38,145 nt of DNA from a virus (taxonomy: Duplodnaviria > Caudoviricetes): positions 1 through 38,145 of IMG/VR virus record IMGVR_UViG_3300036798_000409; one strand, written 5' to 3'. Every line of letters starts with the position of its first letter. Positions within the stretch are counted from its first letter, which is position 1. Under the pieces are notes generated by a model, which worked only from the letters and a program-made list of their open reading frames with translations, searched no databases and was not told the origin of the DNA. Positions 20,988 to 29,622 of this stretch are shown here, piece after piece. The translations under genes and the position numbers were made by a program.

Positions 20988-21304
20988 CCGGGCAAGTTTG
21001 CGCCCAGCCGTTCACGCTGACGGCACATGTTGGCCCCTCGCCGGACGGGACTTACATCTGTCAGCCCAACGGGACGCTGACGATCGCCTCCGGCACGGTA
21101 TCGTGGGGAGCTCCGACGACGGCCACGTCTGCTGGCATTTACCTGAACGGCGCGGCCCTGGACGGTGGTTTGGGCAGCCAGCTGGTGGTGCAGAATGGGG
21201 GCCAGCTGTACACTCTGGGAACAGACCATAATTGGTATGTTTTCGGGTCCGGCGGCCATTGGGTGCTTGGCACTCCGAGCCCGGTTCCCCCCGCTTGCCC
21301 ATAA
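20984..21304 (+). CDS. Tag-bearing beta-domain protein (one SPDG domain)
   Basis: ATGA-coupled; starts MTGQVCAQPFTLTAHVG; 106 aa. Confidence 0.7.
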   Translation: MTGQVCAQPFTLTAHVGPSPDGTYICQPNGTLTIASGTVSWGAPTTATSAGIYLNGAALDGGLGSQLVVQNGGQLYTLGTDHNWYVFGSGGHWVLGTPSPVPPACP

Positions 21305-21471
21305 TCACCGCAACGCCGTTCACGCTCACGGCGCAGATCGATGTGGTGGAAGAGGCGCCGATAGCGCTTCTCGGGCTTGGCTGCGGAATCTGGGTAGCGC
21401 AGAAGATCGAGGAGAACCCGATTGTTCCACGTCGGCGGCTTCTCGGTCTTGAATCGAAGGACGACCCATGA
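21295..21471 (+). CDS. Tag-bearing small protein with hydrophobic segment
   Basis: IITATPFTLTAQI...IALLGLGCGIWVA...NPIVPRRRLLGL; start TTG 21295 or ATA 21301; stop overlaps the next ATG. Confidence 0.55.
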   Translation: MPIITATPFTLTAQIDVVEEAPIALLGLGCGIWVAQKIEENPIVPRRRLLGLESKDDP

Positions 21472-24119
21472 CCATTCTCACCGCGACGCCGTTCGTTGTA
21501 ACGGCGCAGATCGGCATGAGCTCATCTTCGACTCCGGGGTCGCCGTGGCCGATAGGTGTGCCGCCAAACACCCCCGACAGCTTAGTCCAACACACGAGTC
21601 ACGAGGTGTGGAATCAGCCGAGCGCGGGCTACTACGCCAGCGGCGGCCAGGTGATTTTCAATGCCGGCCAGAACGCTGTGATGAGCGGCCAGGTCACCAT
21701 AAACGCGGCTCATTGGAGCTACGGCGGCGGCATAGCACCAGTCGACAACCTCCAAGGCTACTGGCTCATGGATGGGGCGCCGTTTTCTCCGTTGATGACC
21801 GGCCAATCGACGGACGGAGGATCTTTCGCCTACACCTTCGACACGTCGCTGTATCCTGATGGCCCTCATGTATTCACCTTCCAGGTTGTCAATTCCGAGG
21901 TGATTTCTCTCGGACACTACGCAACGAGGGCGATATACATTGTATTTGCCAATCACGGAGCAGCCCCCGACGCTCCGGTGAGGGTGCCGCTGGCGAACTC
22001 GTGGATGGAAGGAGTCCCGAGCGTTCCTGATTGGCACACGTTCACATCCAAGATCCTGCCGCAACACGTCAACGCCGCGATCCCATTTACGCCGGTTTTC
22101 TGTCCCCCGGACCCGGTGAATGGTGCCACGTTGGGCGAATTGGTCATCGAGCCGTTGCGCGGCGCGCCAGGGGCAGGCCCCGGCCGAACGCACGGCCCAC
22201 GCTGGACGATGGGCGACACCGGCGTCGGCTTGTTGCCGGAGGGCGACCTATATTCAGGCAACATCTCTTTGGATGCCGATGGCTATAATTTCAACACCGT
22301 CATGCTCGAGCTCGGGCGCGACGGGGATCGCTTCAACGCTCAGATCTCCGCGCTGACCACCTATGTCGACACCCTCGACGGCACGGGCTGGTGGGGCGTC
22401 AGCATGGACGGCCGCCTGTTCAAGCGCACCTTCGATGGTCACGTCACGACCGTCGCCGGCCGAATATTGGCGCCGAACACCTTTGCTTGGGACCCCCAGG
22501 CCTATCCCTATCTGTCCGAGACTCAAAACTCGGACGCCAGGCTGAACGGGCGCGCGCAATTCATCGGCGATTTCTCCGCTACTCCCGGTGGCAACATGGG
22601 CGGGTGGTGGCTCAAGAATGCCGTCGATCTCTGCGTCGACCCGCGAAACCACGCGATCGTTTACCTCTCGCTCCAGGTGCCGAGCGTCATCGTCAAGGTC
22701 GACACCTCGGTGAGCCCGGCGAGAGTGACGCTCTATGCCGGCACGCTTCAGACCAACCTCGACAACAAGGGAGGCGTGGGCTACGTGGATGGCCCGGCGC
22801 TCTCAGCTCAATTCAGCGAGCAGGCCGGGATCTGCATGCTGTCCGACGGCAGGATGATCGTCGCGGACAGCAACAACGCCGCGATCCGCATGGTTTCGGC
22901 CGATGGATCAACGGTCTCGACCGTCGCAGGCGGGACGGCCAGCTCGCAACCGGCGCCGCCGAGCAGCGACAATCCGCCGACCCGCTCCCCGACCGGCACC
23001 GTCCCTGTGGCGTCCAATTTTGTCGCCTACCCGTATTGGGTCAGGCTGACCTCGCACGGCACGATAGTCCTGATCGAGCAGTACAGCCTGCAGGTTCGCG
23101 AGCTCGACCTCGCGGCGAGAACGCTGCGCTACATCGGCACATTTGGCGACACGCCCGCAAACTCGAACAGCGGGTTTTGGGCTGCGTTGGAGGTCGATAG
23201 CACGGCCACGAACGGCCCCGTGGATCGCATCTATCTGGCCGTGACGGCCGGCGACGTTCCGATGTGGCGTATGGATCTCTCTGGCGCGAACAGCCAGGGA
23301 TGGTTTGGCATCGGCGCGACTGGTCTGTTGAGCGCGTGCGCCGATCGGTCATACACGCCAAACGGTTATTTCCCGTGGATGTTTGCTGTGCACCGGACCC
23401 AGTGCCGGGCGATCGCGACTTGGATCGACGTGGGAACGGTAGAATATCGTGGGCAACCGTATACGCACGACCCTATAGGCGACAACAATAATGCTCAGTA
23501 CGAGATTTGGTGCGCGGGTTATTACGTCTTCATCCTCGGCACCGCCCAATGTTTCCCCTACGGCGCGCGGCCCAGCTTCCTGGCGCTCTACGGCAGCACC
23601 GGGGTAAGCTACCTTGGCCTTTCGGCCACCAACAACTCATTCGAGGAGATCGCCCAGCTCACCCAGGCTGAGCGGTATGCCTTCTACCAGGCGGGGATGA
23701 TCGGCTCGACGCCGCGTCCCGAGCTCACCGGCAACGACCTGCGCAACCTCGACTTCTATGTGATGCGCAACACGTACGCCGGCTCACAGCCCACCCCGTT
23801 CACCCCCGGCCCCGACGATCCTGATACAGGAAACTATCCTCAGCTCTTCGGTGTTGCCGGCACCCGTCTCTCGGCGACGTCGGTGCAGGTTACCTGGACC
23901 ACCGACAAGCCCACGATCGGCCTGGCTGCGGCCACGCCACAAAACGTCACGACCCAAGCGTGGGCCTACGGGCCGTGCAGCCCACTCGAGACGGCGTACG
24001 GGACCAACCACAGCGTCGTGATCTCTGGCCTGCCGCCAAATGTTCAGATCAACGTCACTGCTATGTCGAAGGATGTGGCGGGGAACAGCTCGTACTCTTC
24101 GAATGTCGCCATCCCATGA
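21468..24119 (+). CDS. Large adhesin-like protein: tag, Ig-like domain, NHL-repeat propeller, Fn3-like C-terminus
   Basis: FDTSLYPDGPHVFTF (Ig-like); GYVDGPALSAQF...MIVADSNNAAIRMV...VSTVAGG (NHL); VQVTWTTDKP...HSVVISGL...SKDVAGN (Fn3-like). Confidence 0.8.
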   Translation: MTILTATPFVVTAQIGMSSSSTPGSPWPIGVPPNTPDSLVQHTSHEVWNQPSAGYYASGGQVIFNAGQNAVMSGQVTINAAHWSYGGGIAPVDNLQGYWLMDGAPFSPLMTGQSTDGGSFAYTFDTSLYPDGPHVFTFQVVNSEVISLGHYATRAIYIVFANHGAAPDAPVRVPLANSWMEGVPSVPDWHTFTSKILPQHVNAAIPFTPVFCPPDPVNGATLGELVIEPLRGAPGAGPGRTHGPRWTMGDTGVGLLPEGDLYSGNISLDADGYNFNTVMLELGRDGDRFNAQISALTTYVDTLDGTGWWGVSMDGRLFKRTFDGHVTTVAGRILAPNTFAWDPQAYPYLSETQNSDARLNGRAQFIGDFSATPGGNMGGWWLKNAVDLCVDPRNHAIVYLSLQVPSVIVKVDTSVSPARVTLYAGTLQTNLDNKGGVGYVDGPALSAQFSEQAGICMLSDGRMIVADSNNAAIRMVSADGSTVSTVAGGTASSQPAPPSSDNPPTRSPTGTVPVASNFVAYPYWVRLTSHGTIVLIEQYSLQVRELDLAARTLRYIGTFGDTPANSNSGFWAALEVDSTATNGPVDRIYLAVTAGDVPMWRMDLSGANSQGWFGIGATGLLSACADRSYTPNGYFPWMFAVHRTQCRAIATWIDVGTVEYRGQPYTHDPIGDNNNAQYEIWCAGYYVFILGTAQCFPYGARPSFLALYGSTGVSYLGLSATNNSFEEIAQLTQAERYAFYQAGMIGSTPRPELTGNDLRNLDFYVMRNTYAGSQPTPFTPGPDDPDTGNYPQLFGVAGTRLSATSVQVTWTTDKPTIGLAAATPQNVTTQAWAYGPCSPLETAYGTNHSVVISGLPPNVQINVTAMSKDVAGNSSYSSNVAIP

Positions 24120-25126
24120 TCATCACGGCGACGCCTTTCACTGTGACGGCGCAGATCGGTTCTTCGGGTATCTCTCCGGACGGCTCTTCGCTATTCTTTC
24201 CATCAACGGACGTCCTGACAAACAAGCAAGGGACATGGTCGGTCGGCGATGTCTATGCGGAGGACGACGGAGCTGGTCACGCAGTTTTTCGCATAAAGCT
24301 CAACGGCCGATATGTTGCGGAGATCCAAAACGTACCAGGCGCTGGGTTGGATTTTGGAGTCGTTGCGGTTTCTAGTCTGTGGGTAGACAACGGCGGGTGG
24401 GTTTACGCTTTTGTCAGTGGCGACAACGGCTATGCGATGTACGTCAATGCCGGCTGGGTCGCGAGCGGCGACACGTCCGGTAGGGCGGCGCCCGCAGCCG
24501 GGTATATGCTCTCGCACTTTGCGCCGCCGTACACGAGCTCACCCGATGGCACCAGGATCACGGCCCCCGCCACGAATACGGTGACGAACCAGGACGGCGT
24601 GTGGGGGATCACCAATGGCGTCCTCACCCTGAACGGCGTCGGGATCGTCGACAACCGCGGTGGCAACAACGACAGCTATCCACCGAATGCCTTCCAGGCT
24701 TTGGCGATCGAGATCAACAGTCACGGAACGGCGTTTGTGCAGGCGTCGGACTCGACGTGGCGCAGCTTCGCCGGTTTGGCGGCCAACCCCTCGGCCGGAC
24801 CTACCGCATCCCCGGTCCCCGTGAGCATGACGATCACGCCGCTCAATGGGCAACTCATACCGACCGCGCCCCCGGGGTCTCCGCGGGGAACGAAAGTGGC
24901 AACGCTGACCGTCACGATGAGCGACGGCTCAGTCGTCACTCCGACGACGGCCGAGGTAGCTTTGGTAGCCGACCAAGGGTACCCCGGCGGCCTCGCTTTT
25001 GAATATGTTTCGCCAAATATTCAAAGCAACGGCGTTCCGTTGACGCCAGGCTATGACACATTTCTCGTGCAAGTGACAATAAATGGCACCTCGTTCTGTC
25101 TAGGAACGCTTGTGGGAACCAGCTAA
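24116..25126 (+). CDS. Tag-bearing protein with two SPDG domains and C-terminal cadherin-like domain
   Basis: ATGA-coupled at 24116; MIITATPFTVTAQIG; PRGTKVATLTVTMSDGS; 336 aa. Confidence 0.75.
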   Translation: MIITATPFTVTAQIGSSGISPDGSSLFFPSTDVLTNKQGTWSVGDVYAEDDGAGHAVFRIKLNGRYVAEIQNVPGAGLDFGVVAVSSLWVDNGGWVYAFVSGDNGYAMYVNAGWVASGDTSGRAAPAAGYMLSHFAPPYTSSPDGTRITAPATNTVTNQDGVWGITNGVLTLNGVGIVDNRGGNNDSYPPNAFQALAIEINSHGTAFVQASDSTWRSFAGLAANPSAGPTASPVPVSMTITPLNGQLIPTAPPGSPRGTKVATLTVTMSDGSVVTPTTAEVALVADQGYPGGLAFEYVSPNIQSNGVPLTPGYDTFLVQVTINGTSFCLGTLVGTS

Positions 25127-25534
25127 CTCCGAGACCGTGATGACGAGCTTGGGCTGCTTGCCGTAGACTTTGCGGGGCCGCTTGTATTCGACCACTTGGG
25201 CGTCGTCCAGCCAGACCACGCCCTTTAGTGCGTCTTTGGCCTGCTTGATGTAGTTGTCGAGGTCCGGCTTGCTGGTCGGCCGGATTAGGCCGAGGATTGC
25301 GGCGTTTTTCTTTTTCATCGACCACGAAGCTGGGATTTTGCGCTCCGCGAGGAGCTCCATGACGAGCGCACCCTCGAACGGCTCGCGACCCGACATTTCC
25401 TGCTGGGCGATCAGCCGCAGTGCCGCATGCTCGTTTTTCTGCTTCGACGGCGTGTAGCGGCGCCCTGCTTTGGTTTGCCGATGTGCGAACGGCACAGGCT
25501 CGCCGAGCAGCACGATCGTAACCGGGTCGGTCAT
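25100..25534 (-). CDS. rusA: RusA-family Holliday junction resolvase
   Basis: AGGAGAG SD before ATG 25534; GEPVP, KPDLDNYIKQAKDALKGVVWLDDAQVV motifs. Confidence 0.9.
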   Translation of the reverse strand: MTDPVTIVLLGEPVPFAHRQTKAGRRYTPSKQKNEHAALRLIAQQEMSGREPFEGALVMELLAERKIPASWSMKKKNAAILGLIRPTSKPDLDNYIKQAKDALKGVVWLDDAQVVEYKRPRKVYGKQPKLVITVSELAGSHKRS

Positions 25535-25715
25535 TGTCTCTCCTGGTCTCCCCGCTCGTCGGACCGCGGCGCGGGGAGTGCGTAGCGCGGCCGCGGTACA
25601 CGCCTGCTTTGCACATAGCACAGCGGCGGTAAAATGCACCCGCGACACCCTGTCGCATGGGCAATGGGTGCCGATCGGGAGTATATTGCGATCATACCAA
25701 GCGAAGGAGCTGGAT

Positions 25716-26033
25716 ATGGACAAGTGGCAAGCCCAACAAATCAACGAGTTTATCCGTCGGAATCCGGACGCCCGCGAGGCGGCCGAGCGCAAGCTGCTAG
25801 CGATCACTTCCCCATTCGGGGCCTCATTGAAGCGAGCTGACGCGTTCGAGCATTTCCTTTCTTCGCCAGATCTTCCCCAGCCTTGTGCTGGGGCCTCATT
25901 GAAGCACGTCTGCCCGCACGGCACGCAGCTCGACCTGCAGGATTGCATGCAATGCGCGGACGAGGCCGAGCTCGCGGATCTGTTGCCGCACAGCACGCTG
26001 ACGGCGCGGCTGCGCGCGGGGATGAAGCCATAA
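25716..26033 (+). CDS. Hypothetical protein containing the CRISPR-like unit
   Basis: AAGGAG SD; 105 aa; CPHG...CxxC; TAATG-coupled to the next ORF. Confidence 0.55.
   Translation: MDKWQAQQINEFIRRNPDAREAAERKLLAITSPFGASLKRADAFEHFLSSPDLPQPCAGASLKHVCPHGTQLDLQDCMQCADEAELADLLPHSTLTARLRAGMKP
25805..25905 (+). CRISPR. Mini-array: shortened repeat, 36-nt spacer, full 36-nt type I-G-like repeat
   Basis: R1 CACTTCCCC-ATTC-GGGGCCTCATTGAAGC (25805-25833); spacer 25834-25869; R2 ATCTTCCCCAGC-CTTGT-GCTGGGGCCTCATTGAAGC (25870-25905). Confidence 0.75.
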
Positions 26034-26122
26034 TGACAACATTTGGCTGGATACTTGCGGTTATTACCGTATCCGGTATAGCTCTGTCTATCGTTGGCCT
26101 AATTTATACATTGGTGCGCTGA
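26033..26122 (+). CDS. Small single-pass membrane protein
   Basis: MTTFGWILAVITVSGIALSIVGLIYTLVR; coupled at both ends; AT-richer. Confidence 0.55.
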   Translation: MTTFGWILAVITVSGIALSIVGLIYTLVR

Positions 26123-27001
26123 ATGATCATCCGCGAGACCGCCTCCGCCTACCATGCCCGCGAGGCGGTCTCGGCCGGTTTCGCATGGGACGTCGTGTCG
26201 AGTTGCCCTGCGCAGGCCTACTATAACTCCGTATTTCATCCCGACCATGTCGCCATCCAAGCCCGCAAGGAGGCGAAGCGGCACAGCAACGAGCTCGATG
26301 TCGGCACGGCGGCGCACCTCGCGGTCCTGGAGAGCCACGTCTTCGCGGAGCGGTGCAGCTTGGTCCCTTACTCGGATTGGCGCACCCAGGACTCGCGCAA
26401 CATCCGCGATCAATGCGTGATCGACGGCAGGGTGCCGCTGCTCGCCAAGGATTACGAGCTCGTGACGAAGCTGCGACTCTCGATCGAGAACAGCGACGCG
26501 GCCGAGTATTTCTTCGGCGAGGGCGAGAGCGAGGTCAGCTTCACGTGGGAAGACAACGGGATCGCCTGCAAGGCCCGCGCCGACCGCATCGTGCCCGGCG
26601 CGATCGTCGACCTGAAGACCGCCATCAGCGCGAGCCCGCAGGCGTTCCAGCGCGCGATGGTGCGCTACGGGCACCATCTGCGGGCGGCGTGGTATCTCGA
26701 TGGCTGGCGAGAGGGCAGCGACCCATCGCCGCATGTCTATGAGGTGTTGAAAGACATGCGGTATCTCTACGTCGTGGTCGCGAAGACCGAGCCGCACCTG
26801 GTCTCGATCAACCGCCTCGACGAACGCGCGCTCGAATGGGGCTGGATGCTTTGCCGCAAGGCCCTGTCCGAGATCAGGCGAGCCTGGGAGACCGGAGTGT
26901 GGTCAGGGTACAGCCTGGAGGGCGATAAGATCAACACCGTGTCGCTCCCGGCTTTCGCCGAGCACCAGCTCGCGGACATGGAGGCCAACGATGAGATTTG
27001 A
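26123..27001 (+). CDS. RecE/exonuclease VIII-like PD-(D/E)XK nuclease
   Basis: YHA...GTAAHLAVLE, ESEVSFTW, CKARAD, IVDLKT, F...YGHHLRAAWY motifs. Confidence 0.85.
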   Translation: MIIRETASAYHAREAVSAGFAWDVVSSCPAQAYYNSVFHPDHVAIQARKEAKRHSNELDVGTAAHLAVLESHVFAERCSLVPYSDWRTQDSRNIRDQCVIDGRVPLLAKDYELVTKLRLSIENSDAAEYFFGEGESEVSFTWEDNGIACKARADRIVPGAIVDLKTAISASPQAFQRAMVRYGHHLRAAWYLDGWREGSDPSPHVYEVLKDMRYLYVVVAKTEPHLVSINRLDERALEWGWMLCRKALSEIRRAWETGVWSGYSLEGDKINTVSLPAFAEHQLADMEANDEI

Positions 27002-27173
27002 TCTTGCGCCGCATCAGGTGTTGTTGGTCCGCCACGCGATCTTGGCGATGCACGCCAGCATCAAGCTTTGCCTGCACAATACCAACATGCCCCCGGCCAC
27101 GGAGCACGCCTGCGAGTTCACATGCGAGCAACTCGAAGAGGTGATCGCGATATTCTCGGAGAAGCCGGAATGA
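26991..27173 (+). CDS. Hypothetical protein
   Basis: GGAGG SD; 60 aa; ATGA-coupled to the ERF gene. Confidence 0.55.
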   Translation: MRFDLAPHQVLLVRHAILAMHASIKLCLHNTNMPPATEHACEFTCEQLEEVIAIFSEKPE

Positions 27174-27991
27174 CCCATGATCTCGACACCGGAGAAATCA
27201 CCTACACGCTCTACCGCCGAAGCGCCGATCTCGGTGCCCTCTTTGCCGCGCTTGCGAAAGCCCAAGCCTCGTTCGCTAGTGCCTCACGGGATGCCGAAAA
27301 CGAAGGCTTCAAGCGCGGCGGCAAGGCGAGCCGCTATGCGACTTTGGAGTCCGTGATCGAGGCCACCAAGATGGGGCTTGCGGAGAACGGGCTGGCGTTG
27401 CTGCAAATGCCCGGCAATCAGGGAACGAGCATCACGGTAACGACAATCCTCGGGCACGGCGAATCCGGGCAGTGGGTCGAGAGCACCTTTGCCGTCGCCC
27501 CATCTCGGTTTGATGCGCAGGGCGCGGGGTCTGTTATCACCTATCTGCGCCGTTACTCACGCATGGCCGTCTGCGGCATCGCGCCCGAGGATGACGACGG
27601 CAACGCGGCCTCGATCGAAGCGCCGCAGAAGCTTGGCCGGCCGCCGCCACGCCGCGCAGGGCCGTTCTCCAAAACGTACCCGGCCGAGCAGGGGTTTGTC
27701 ACAGAGCCGGTTCCCGCCAATAGGGAAAATCCTGTATTGGCCGAGTCTCCTACGGTCGTACCTAACGCCACACTGACGACTCGCGCATGGGGAGCTGCGC
27801 GCGATGGTTTGTGGTCGCTCCAGAGTTTTTGCGAATCGCTAACCCGCACCGAGCGAGCGAGCATCAAGCGGCTGGTGGTCGACGAGCTGCAGCCGTTCGC
27901 GCGTCGGGCGGACGAGGATAGAGTTGCAGACGAGCAACGCGACAGGCTCGACGAGCTGACCGAACGCAAACCGGAGGAGATTCCGCTATGA
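27170..27991 (+). CDS. erf: ERF-family ssDNA annealing protein
   Basis: LFAALAKAQ, YATLESV, ESGQW, QGAGSVITYLRRYS...GIAPEDDDGNAA. Confidence 0.9.
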   Translation: MTHDLDTGEITYTLYRRSADLGALFAALAKAQASFASASRDAENEGFKRGGKASRYATLESVIEATKMGLAENGLALLQMPGNQGTSITVTTILGHGESGQWVESTFAVAPSRFDAQGAGSVITYLRRYSRMAVCGIAPEDDDGNAASIEAPQKLGRPPPRRAGPFSKTYPAEQGFVTEPVPANRENPVLAESPTVVPNATLTTRAWGAARDGLWSLQSFCESLTRTERASIKRLVVDELQPFARRADEDRVADEQRDRLDELTERKPEEIPL

Positions 27992-28464
27992 CCGATCTCG
28001 ACGAGCTGCTTGCCAAGCTGAAAGCGGACGTGGCAGCGAAACATGCGCAGGCTGATATCTTGATGCGCGAGGCCGACCTTGTCGCCGCCCGCATCCAGGG
28101 CGTCGAGGAGGCCCGCGCGGCGATGGTGCTTGCCGAGGGAGACGCTGCGCTTCGAGACATAGATGCGCGCGCCGAGCGGCTTAGGAATCGCAAGCCGCGG
28201 CGCGACATCCGGGCGCTCGTGAAGGCTACGGTCGAGAAAAAAGGCTTGTGCTCCGCCGCAACACTTGAAGAGCAAGCTACCGAGATTGCCGAAGAGATTG
28301 GCTGCCGCAAGTCGCAGGTCGAGGCCGCGCTGCGGGCGATGTCAGTAGTCAAGCCCGATGGCGAATCCGTGAGCCTGCAGCTGGGGGAGCTGCCGCGCGA
28401 GCCTCTTCCCGATGTCGTTTCGGTAGAAGGGGCTCGCCGGCATGCTGATCTTGCGGAGGGTTGA
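27988..28464 (+). CDS. Hypothetical coiled-coil protein
   Basis: GGAGGAG SD, ATGA-coupled; 3' end overlaps the PurD-like gene by about 120 nt. Confidence 0.65.
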   Translation: MTDLDELLAKLKADVAAKHAQADILMREADLVAARIQGVEEARAAMVLAEGDAALRDIDARAERLRNRKPRRDIRALVKATVEKKGLCSAATLEEQATEIAEEIGCRKSQVEAALRAMSVVKPDGESVSLQLGELPREPLPDVVSVEGARRHADLAEG

Positions 28465-29622
28465 GTATGCACTTCTTGCTGCAAGCCGCACTGTGGCGCC
28501 TGTTCCCACGCCTATGCCAACGTATCCTCCGGCAGAGGCCAGAGGGGAGTTTTCGCCCGCCTGACACTCGCACGGGTGGAATCCCTCCGTTTCCCCCCAT
28601 AGGGGCACCCCGACAATCTCCTCGTAATCCCGTGGCGGATGAGGGTACGGCGGTATGGCAAGAACTACTCCCACCGCAACCTCATTCATCGTATGGGCCG
28701 CACGCGTCCACTCTCCGGAGGCCAGAGCATGAAGAAACTCGATAGGATCGCAGGCGAAAAGATCGGTCTCGATGTTGAAGGCAGGCCAGCCGAGCCGCAT
28801 GGTCCACTCAAGGGGCCACGGGTGTCCGCTGTCGTCGATGATGCAGTTGACGTCGACGTTGCCGACATAACCGAGCGCCTCAAGCTGCTCTGCGCACGGT
28901 ACAAGGACTTTCTCCGCGAGTTTGCTACGGCGAACATACCGCATGACTGTGCCCGCTTCGCCGCAGTTCTGGCCCAAATCACCCGCAAAGAGCTTCTTAA
29001 ACTCGAAATTCTCCTCGAAGCCCTCCGCGAAGCCGGCAGGGCCGAACCACCCGCCGGCGGCGAACTCAATCCCCTCGATCGCCTCTTGCAATAGGAACGG
29101 ACACGGAGGGCGGCCATGTTTTTTCTTCCACTTCCGAAGCATGAAGGTGGGATCTTCCTCGACGCCCGTCTTTGCGCTCAAGCTTTTGTCCGCAGTATCC
29201 GAGCATGGCTTAGAATAGAAGGGTTCTCCTCGACGCTCGACGAACTTAATTGCCTCGGTGTAATCGTTGAACTCGCGGAAGGGAGGCGCGGGGATGCCGG
29301 CCTTCTTAAAGACCTGCATTCCCTTGGTGCGGTCGAGCTCCCACGCGGCGCTCTCGGGCGTGCCGCCGATGACGAGCATCCCTTCAGCCTGCCACCGGGC
29401 AGCTTCAGTGAGGTAGGCCCCATTGGCCTCAAGGATGATGATGTCAGCCCACCGAAGCCAGGGATGGAAGTCTGGCACAAGATCAACCAGGCCCTTGCCG
29501 ATTGGCCGAGACCGCGCGTCGTACTTACGGACGAAGAACTTGACCTGATGGCCGGCCTTCTCCGACCGGAGAGCAAGGTCTAAGAGTCCGTCCCCGGCGT
29601 CACAAATTAGGAGAACACGAAT
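28342..29622 (-). CDS. PurD-like ATP-grasp ligase (probable ATT start)
   Basis: WELDR..G, FLLQEAIEGIE, GDLGQNCGEAG (cf. PurD GDTGPNTGGMG), PLEWTMRLGWP. Frame extends 48 codons upstream of the tracked GTG to ATT-CGT-GTT-CTC. Confidence 0.85.
   Translation of the reverse strand: MRVLLICDAGDGLLDLALRSEKAGHQVKFFVRKYDARSRPIGKGLVDLVPDFHPWLRWADIIILEANGAYLTEAARWQAEGMLVIGGTPESAAWELDRTKGMQVFKKAGIPAPPFREFNDYTEAIKFVERRGEPFYSKPCSDTADKSLSAKTGVEEDPTFMLRKWKKKHGRPPCPFLLQEAIEGIEFAAGGWFGPAGFAEGFEENFEFKKLFAGDLGQNCGEAGTVMRYVRRSKLAEKVLVPCAEQLEALGYVGNVDVNCIIDDSGHPWPLEWTMRLGWPAFNIETDLFACDPIEFLHALASGEWTRAAHTMNEVAVGVVLAIPPYPHPPRDYEEIVGVPLWGETEGFHPCECQAGENSPLASAGGYVGIGVGTGATVRLAARSAYSTLRKISMPASPFYRNDIGKRLARQLPQLQAHGFAIGLDY
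28467..28745 (+). CDS. Candidate antisense-overprinted ORF 1
   Basis: GGAGGG-N6-ATG, two nt after the previous stop. Confidence 0.35.
   Translation: MHFLLQAALWRLFPRLCQRILRQRPEGSFRPPDTRTGGIPPFPPIGAPRQSPRNPVADEGTAVWQELLPPQPHSSYGPHASTLRRPEHEETR
28729..29094 (+). CDS. Candidate antisense-overprinted ORF 2
   Basis: GGAGG-N7-ATG overlapping the end of ORF 1. Confidence 0.35.
   Translation: MKKLDRIAGEKIGLDVEGRPAEPHGPLKGPRVSAVVDDAVDVDVADITERLKLLCARYKDFLREFATANIPHDCARFAAVLAQITRKELLKLEILLEALREAGRAEPPAGGELNPLDRLLQ
29116..29583 (+). CDS. Candidate antisense-overprinted ORF 3
   Basis: GGAGGG-N5-ATG, 21 nt after the ORF 2 stop. Confidence 0.35.
   Translation: MFFLPLPKHEGGIFLDARLCAQAFVRSIRAWLRIEGFSSTLDELNCLGVIVELAEGRRGDAGLLKDLHSLGAVELPRGALGRAADDEHPFSLPPGSFSEVGPIGLKDDDVSPPKPGMEVWHKINQALADWPRPRVVLTDEELDLMAGLLRPESKV

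Follow-up and report, generated by a model that had tools for sequence, protein, structure and literature searches.

The DNA analysed here, referred to as the window, is the whole 38,145-nt record of a soil-metagenome phage (IMG/VR IMGVR_UViG_3300036798_000409), in which a terminase, a major head protein, an endolysin, RusA, a RecE-like exonuclease and ERF are encoded, as judged from Pfam and PHROGs. Among its 299 mechanically called ORFs, cas families were detected in none of the 48 compared with Pfam and PHROGs and in none of the 26 compared with PADLOC. The early operon is arranged as follows.

25100..25534, minus strand: rusA resolvase gene, divergent from the operon (Pfam RusA, E 2.4e-26; phrog_140)
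25608..25687, plus strand: two sigma-70-like promoter candidates (25608-25635 and 25658-25687), by consensus match only
25704..25709, plus strand: Shine-Dalgarno (SD) sequence AAGGAG, 6 nt upstream of the ATG at 25716 (duplex -8.0 kcal/mol)
25716..26033, plus strand: 105-aa ORF (P0001), placed by its homologues in a mosaic family of small proteins that has no name
26033..26122, plus strand: 29-aa hydrophobic peptide, the start of which overlaps the stop of the 105-aa ORF (TAA/ATG)
26123..27001, plus strand: RecE-like exonuclease VIII (phrog_412, E 9.6e-60; SD -1.2 kcal/mol)
27170..27991, plus strand: ERF single-strand annealing protein (Pfam ERF, E 5.7e-17)

The TGA of the 29-aa peptide abuts the ATG of recE (26123), and a 60-aa ORF separates recE from erf. 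The first-pass annotation, made from the letters alone, had described a strong SD opening a 105-aa ORF that is coupled to an operon of a membrane peptide, RecE and ERF, and this layout was confirmed in both respects. The SD energy at recE is -1.2 kcal/mol, compared with -5.7 to -9.5 kcal/mol at the other five starts; recE thus lacks a useful SD and is therefore likely to depend on translational coupling. The two promoter candidates, each agreeing with 9 of 12 consensus positions, compare with 0.7 expected by consensus scoring, the only scoring applied. The divergent control region also contains a GC-rich inverted repeat with 15-nt arms (25548-25578), immediately ahead of the rusA start, and a 378-aa ATP-grasp protein with GARS_A and GARS_C matches (PurD-like; 28342-29478, minus strand) is opposed to the operon. 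A 45-nt repeat occurs three times elsewhere in the window (21296-21340, 21469-21513 and 24114-24158), two of the copies being at the starts of genes for 883-aa and 336-aa proteins. Searching IMG/VR with the major head protein gave 12 relatives (L046-L057; 51-80% identity), most of them fragments and one at least 90% complete; none of these mostly fragmentary relatives contained the family of the 105-aa ORF, the type I-G repeat described below or the phage's recE, so that the early module looks swapped.

The 105-aa ORF itself matched nothing in Pfam, PHROG or PADLOC, and the Atlas and PDB gave nothing usable for its product. Protein searches and a cluster look-up yielded 16 homologues (P0002-P0007 and P0010-P0019), two weak matches in much longer proteins (P0008, 3,277 aa; P0009, 1,100 aa) being left out of this count. 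The homologues have their start and the region of their stop in common with the ORF, and a C-x-H...C-x-x-C module is conserved among them. Family members are built from an N-module with SP[FC]G at its end, then a linker, then the C-x-H-G...C-x-x-C module, which occurs on unrelated N-termini too. The two modules are located in the window as follows.

25716..25823, plus strand: N-module, residues 1-36, ending in the ancestral SP[FC]GA; common to P0002, P0005 and P0006 and in part to P0004 and P0007
25908..26033, plus strand: C-module with C-x-H-G...C-x-x-C, putatively metal binding, joined in the family to many different N-termini

GC contents at the first, second and third codon positions are 0.69, 0.38 and 0.76 in the N-module (25716-25802) and 0.71, 0.45 and 0.88 in the C-module. 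A spurious ORF was ruled out by these codon-position values together with the homologues; on homology, the 105-aa gene is a real one. From SP[FC]G to the first cysteine the linker measures 4 residues in P0005, 9 in P0004 and P0007, 30 in both P0006 and the ORF of the window (P0001) and 34 in P0002, and this range of 4-34 residues across the family indicates that the site tolerates insertions. In the structure model of the 105-aa protein, which is of low confidence (pLDDT 54.9, pTM 0.21), almost all of residues 31-65 fall below a pLDDT of 50. The C-x-H-G...C-x-x-C motif is tandemly doubled in P0004; with the unrelated N-termini of P0004 and P0011-P0019, it appears as an unnamed mobile module.

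Judged from these alignments, it is the hypervariable linker of this small phage gene that is filled by a repeat-spacer-repeat array. An exact 16-nt repeat is present at 25818-25833 and 25890-25905 with a period of 72 nt, and the elements of the unit are the following.

25805..25833, plus strand: R1, degenerate repeat with a 4-bp stem (25810-25821), the 3' end of the repeat and an 8-nt handle
25834..25869, plus strand: spacer of 36 nt, encoding residues 40-52
25870..25905, plus strand: R2, type I-G repeat of full length (36 nt), made up of a 7-bp stem, a 4-nt link and an 8-nt handle among its parts
25826..25897, plus strand: predicted mature crRNA of 72 nt, requiring cuts at both repeats, from the Csb2 cut rule in the available text of 10.1101/2022.08.08.503147

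Because 72 nt equals 24 codons, the peptide GASLK is encoded twice, at residues 35-39 and 59-63; the ORF then continues into C66-P-H68-G...C77-x-x-C80, and both the read-through of the two repeats and this motif had been correctly noted in the first pass. Among the three forward frames, that of the ORF is the only one open across the array. The 16-nt repeat is the sole 16-mer of the contig to recur at a distance of 60-85 nt, and none of 200 third-order Markov simulations produced one. A 14-nt motif was also present twice, and at least two matches to it with no more than two mismatches were found in 6 of 100 shuffles. A chance repeat was ruled out by the simulations, the Rfam match and the agreement with natural I-G arrays.

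R2 matched Rfam CRISPR-DR16 with an E value of 2.4e-4 (28.6 bits, under the gathering score of 35), R1 only weakly (E 4.3). Scanning GTDB genomes with the stem and 3' end of R2 gave eight loci (Azospirillum, Rhodovarius, Gammaproteobacteria and Ectothiorhodospiraceae). Compared with the repeat of the Rhodovarius metagenome-assembled genome, R2 differs in the loop alone; its loop differs from those of all natural repeats fetched, which fits drift, and in some natural arrays the first bases differ as well. Of the 20 ORFs scanned from L003-L006, L008 and L010, cas matches were confined to L006/L010 and L008, where arrays of the R2 family adjoin cas4g/cas1g, with csb2 in L010. By its geometry and by these arrays beside csb2 and cas4g/cas1g, R2 is a type I-G repeat. 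The spacer of 36 nt falls within the 35-45 nt of natural spacers of this repeat family. Furthermore, the one public run in which the phage DNA was found, a soil metagenome that may be its source, includes a separate contig carrying repeat, 36 nt and repeat, at a depth of 24.7 against approximately 10 for the phage, so that the run contains a candidate host array. Its repeat appears to differ from R2, since the phage contig passes R2 unbroken.

As far as the available text of the report goes, Csb2 cuts the 36-nt I-G repeat 4 nt past its 7-bp stem to leave an 8-nt handle (10.1101/2022.08.08.503147), a geometry that R2 fits exactly. Folding of the full ORF mRNA predicts both stems, with pair probabilities of 0.85-1.0 (0.97 for the R1 stem), and places the R1 and R2 hairpins in the register at which Csb2 is reported to cut. 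R1 keeps the 4-nt link and the 8-nt handle; with a stem of 4 bp only, it may stay uncut, and it differs in this from the Csb2 substrates of that report, as does the RNA as a whole, which would here be a predicted translated mRNA.

The relatives suggest how R1 arose. Repeat peptides of the form A[SP]LK or G[LP]IE[AT] were found in none of the 16 homologues and, since the third frame of the repeat contains a stop, no homologue ORF carries an intact I-G repeat end. As the insert-free relatives encode SP[FC]G, the stem of R1 is likely to be the gene's own codons. Judged from protein comparison alone, R1 is therefore likely a chimera in which the stem is ancestral coding sequence and only the last 10 nt come from a repeat, with the junction in GGGGCC. 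Homologue DNA was sought in IMG/VR, JGI metagenomes, GenBank phages, plasmids, the 12 capsid relatives and 401 genomes of the order of G001, and none was found; a RecE-based scan of viral contigs confirmed nothing either.

An open frame through such a unit needs no regulatory design. Among 106 distinct natural I-G units, the period is a multiple of three in 34, the register of the array is stop-free in 51, and 19 (18%) combine both. The comparison was extended to 15 distinct short phage I-G arrays, which remained from 30 loci after the removal of two duplicates, four at contig ends and nine long arrays. Seven of these 15 are likewise spanned by an ORF, and the ORF over the array was accordingly ruled out as special in itself; none of the 15 combines the spanning ORF with both an ATG and an SD motif. 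Seven of the 15 resemble the array of the window in that the first stem is the weaker one and the repeat behind it is full. The gating of crRNA release by translation, put forward in the first pass, is not supported; an open frame is what 19 of 106 natural units would give.

The companion proposal was that the phage senses host CRISPR, cutting by Csb2 or ribosome traffic over the hairpins tuning recE and erf to the CRISPR status of the host. The SD-poor recE does stand at the end of a coupled chain located downstream of the cut sites, and expression is likely to be affected incidentally to some extent; the expected sign of the effect, however, is wrong. With recE lacking a useful SD, a cut would tend to lower RecE and ERF, leaving less recombinase when CRISPR is present, whereas phage recombinases help CRISPR escape according to the accessible part of PMC10132644. 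The homologues, none of which encodes the repeat peptides, function without an array. Among the 15 arrays, erf- or gam-like genes within 2 kb were matched for one only (95 of 110 candidate ORFs scanned) and were absent from the matches of the other 14. In that one (L030, the same as L011), an I-G array stands just upstream of membrane peptide, gam-like and erf genes, a neighbourhood that favours sensing, but two short ORFs, each in its own frame, extend over it instead of one gene. Sensing is therefore regarded as very unlikely. The dual-use RNA of the first-pass annotation is retained in part: the homologues of the gene and the predicted hairpins in Csb2 register support a transcript of two uses, and the sensing or gating role attached to it is not supported.

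The L030 locus (1979-2163, equal to L011:1498-1682; IMGVR_UViG_3300046526_000209) contains three different I-G repeats with intact but differing stems and two spacers that are alike by eye. Two ORFs in different frames extend over the array, just upstream of the membrane peptide, gam-like gene and erf: one of 21 aa, which is coupled to the gene before it, and one of 54 aa, which overlaps the start that follows.

Phage protospacers are known to recombine with host spacers. The preferred reading, held tentatively and at somewhat less than an even chance, is that a captured host I-G unit turns the early mRNA into a leaderless pre-crRNA, the guide being most likely directed against a related phage. 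It follows reports of leaderless phage mini-arrays (PMC6858448; 10.1101/2023.03.03.530964), which, according to the portions available of PMC6858448, are directed against related viruses and may acquire spacers when they recombine with arrays of the host. What is observed comprises the repeats and their subtype, the gene family and the place of the array in its linker, the open frame and the coupling of the operon; the remaining steps are envisaged as follows. A unit of a host array would have recombined into the variable linker, probably through a GGGGCC common to the ancestral Gly-Ala codons and the repeat. The frame would have been kept since any stop or frameshift would interrupt the coupling through which the SD-poor recE is reached; given the likely dependence of recE on coupling, a frame-breaking insert would be purged. 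Host Csb2 would then cut the early mRNA 4 nt past each stem, releasing a 72-nt crRNA to be loaded into host Cascade, with a related or rival phage as the probable target, and the loss of some operon transcripts by cutting would be a cost and not a sensor. In favour of this reading were counted the match of R2 to natural repeats, the predicted stems, the tolerant linker, SP[FC]G in insert-free relatives, the weaker first stem in seven of the 15 short phage arrays, the full-length spacer, the candidate host array and the contig break inside the spacer described below; against it, the lack of a protospacer in the sets searched, the short stem of R1, the loop of R2, the likeness of the spacer peptide to the linker of P0002 and the fact that this is a single case, with repeat peptides in none of the 16 homologues.

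Virus-borne mini-arrays are already known, and the novelty is the intragenic, in-frame placement in a gene with insert-free homologues. According to the accessible parts of the reports, the cas-less arrays of SPV1, SPV2 and phages likewise consist of one spacer between host-type repeats with no viral cas found (PMC6858448; 10.1101/2023.03.03.530964); the window, too, has one spacer between two repeats and no viral cas among the ORFs scanned. The phage mini-arrays described there are leaderless (PMC6858448), like the array in the 105-aa gene. The SPV arrays, by the same partial account, are intergenic and have leaders, whereas this array lies in frame within a conserved gene on a polycistronic mRNA, and the DNA upstream of it is the conserved coding N-module in place of intergenic DNA with a host-like leader. 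In the literature available, no account of an in-frame intragenic phage I-G array was found, although supplementary Table S10 of 10.1101/2023.03.03.530964 and Table S2 of the Cracr report may hold cases.

Repeat mimics offer a second comparison and a different function. By analogy, Racr and solitary repeat units are phage-borne repeats that a Cas6-type enzyme could bind, as this one might be; as described in the part of PMC10651486 available they are solitary and intergenic, whereas the array here comprises two repeats and a full spacer inside a gene. Viral Cracr or crlRNA units share with it the order of a degenerate first repeat, a spacer and a second repeat in a phage, and differ in that the present array is of type I-G, lies inside a gene and, in the fetched cas loci, has no seed match of 9 or more nt to a cas promoter beside a PAM (10.1101/2024.10.29.618823, available part). 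On this model the early mRNA would be a decoy or silencing RNA, its hairpins holding Csb2 or loading Cascade with a useless or cas-silencing guide. Csb2 remains on the cut hairpin with a KD of 43 nM, according to the text available of 10.1101/2022.08.08.503147, the pair of a degenerate and a full repeat is the crlRNA layout, and a position at the head of the early operon would imply immediate expression. The unit, however, is not solitary and its spacer is of full length; no seed match beside cas genes was found in 195,646 fetched bases, a set not tied to an identified host, the best run being 9 nt in a phage locus; and the Cracr survey, in the part available, lists types V-A, I-B, I-C, I-E and I-F without mention of I-G (10.1101/2024.10.29.618823). 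A decoy role, which is compatible with the captured guide and not exclusive of it, is considered unlikely.

The spacer was compared with possible targets at several levels. IMG/VR gave two matches to an 18-nt piece, but with 14 mismatches over the 36 nt, and no convincing match was found in 50,697 phages and 72,556 plasmids, nor in the fetched loci and the 12 capsid relatives. Self-targeting was rejected, the best other match within the phage contig being 22 of 36 nt. In four of five I-G genomes 11-nt matches to the spacer occurred, counted irrespective of their position relative to cas genes. In the soil run, two phage contigs overlap by 30 nt at 25836-25865, wholly within the spacer, and this is the only break in 4,001 bases; in a 31-mer graph such a break suggests a second DNA sharing the core of the spacer, and an artefact of assembly or a tip of low depth could also account for it.

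At the protein level the spacer peptide agrees with the linker of P0002 at 5 of 12 positions in exact register, a match that a random captured spacer does not predict. Scores as high were reached by 1 of 7,041 phage 12-mers, by 10 of 76,214 12-mers from the six frames and, among 106 natural spacers, by 1. Of two explanations, one makes P0002 a decayed copy of this array and the other derives the spacer from the gene family. The insert of P0002 ends in FIET, a motif absent from 7,235 phage residues, and this could, on the residues concerned, be the remnant of a repeat end; LIEA occurs in P0017 away from the linker.

Were the spacer derived from the gene family, it would be the family's own linker, once acquired by a host, and a phage would have recombined with the host array at the spacer. 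The PAM side and the far flank would thereby be replaced by repeats, giving escape from targeting together with a guide against unconverted siblings, and RecE and ERF could turn that guide into homing. In its full form the phage would have written a piece of its own gene into the spacer, which would serve as both protein and sibling-directed guide, with RecE and ERF copying the cassette and the PAM erased; such an element would be a protein-free, RNA-guided homing element using host Cascade. Conversion of this kind accounts for the 5/12 likeness in register and makes selection unnecessary for the open frame; a sibling allele in the soil sample would fit the break between the two phage contigs, and I-G targeting in the presence of a donor leads to homology-directed repair in the available part of PMC10482374. 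But one of the 106 natural spacers also attains 5/12, and the best-case DNA identity between the spacer and the homologues, back-inferred from protein, is 22-26 of 36 nt. The top value of 26 at the insertion site of P0005 is, in this protein-level comparison, barely above the 22-25 of unrelated positions elsewhere. Moreover, chance would have to have placed GGGGCC at precisely 10 nt ahead of the protospacer, and FIET in P0002, if a decayed repeat end, would make the array ancestral. Templated conversion is thus judged distinctly unlikely, and its full form, with the phage's own gene piece as a homing guide, equally so.

A captured unit might instead be a relic that a disordered linker tolerates, functionless as RNA and turning into ordinary coding sequence, of which P0002 could be the end state. 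The hypervariability of the linker, the values below pLDDT 50 for most of residues 31-65 in the low-confidence model, the 18% prior of an in-frame unit, the altered loop of R2 and the absence of the array from relatives all suit it. Against it, the stem of R2 and both 16-nt ends are intact, and the ends identical, though the loop differs from known repeats. The third-position GC of the array is 0.57 against the 0.76 and 0.88 of its coding-like flanks, indicating that the array has not been recoded. Loss of function to this degree is accordingly held to be improbable, and the captured guide is preferred to it.

That a complete I-G repeat can sit in a real phage gene suggests that such arrays are undercounted, since surveys of viral repeat mimics, as far as their available texts go, focus on intergenic DNA, and one of them, SRUFinder, masks ORFs and deems intragenic matches probable false positives (PMC10651486). 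If a guide is made from the captured unit, the phage mRNA would double as a pre-crRNA, with ribosomes and the Cas6-type enzyme competing for one transcript. The apparent GGGGCC junction offers a rare view of the acquisition of leaderless arrays by phages.

Several of the other phage loci deserve mention in their own right. In L023 (1897-2241), two I-G repeats 75 nt apart encode APLK twice in a 114-aa ORF that has an ATG and no SD motif and directly follows a DNA methyltransferase gene; this may be another array in frame. In the phage I-G units of L017 (minus strand, near 2001-2087) and L027 (1185-1293), the first repeat is degenerate and the second full, and each has a terminator-like hairpin; with a promoter-like sequence in L017 as well, these are stand-alone versions of the same anatomy. 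In L014 (1495-1684), a phage array beside an HTH gene carries I-G repeats that decay progressively.
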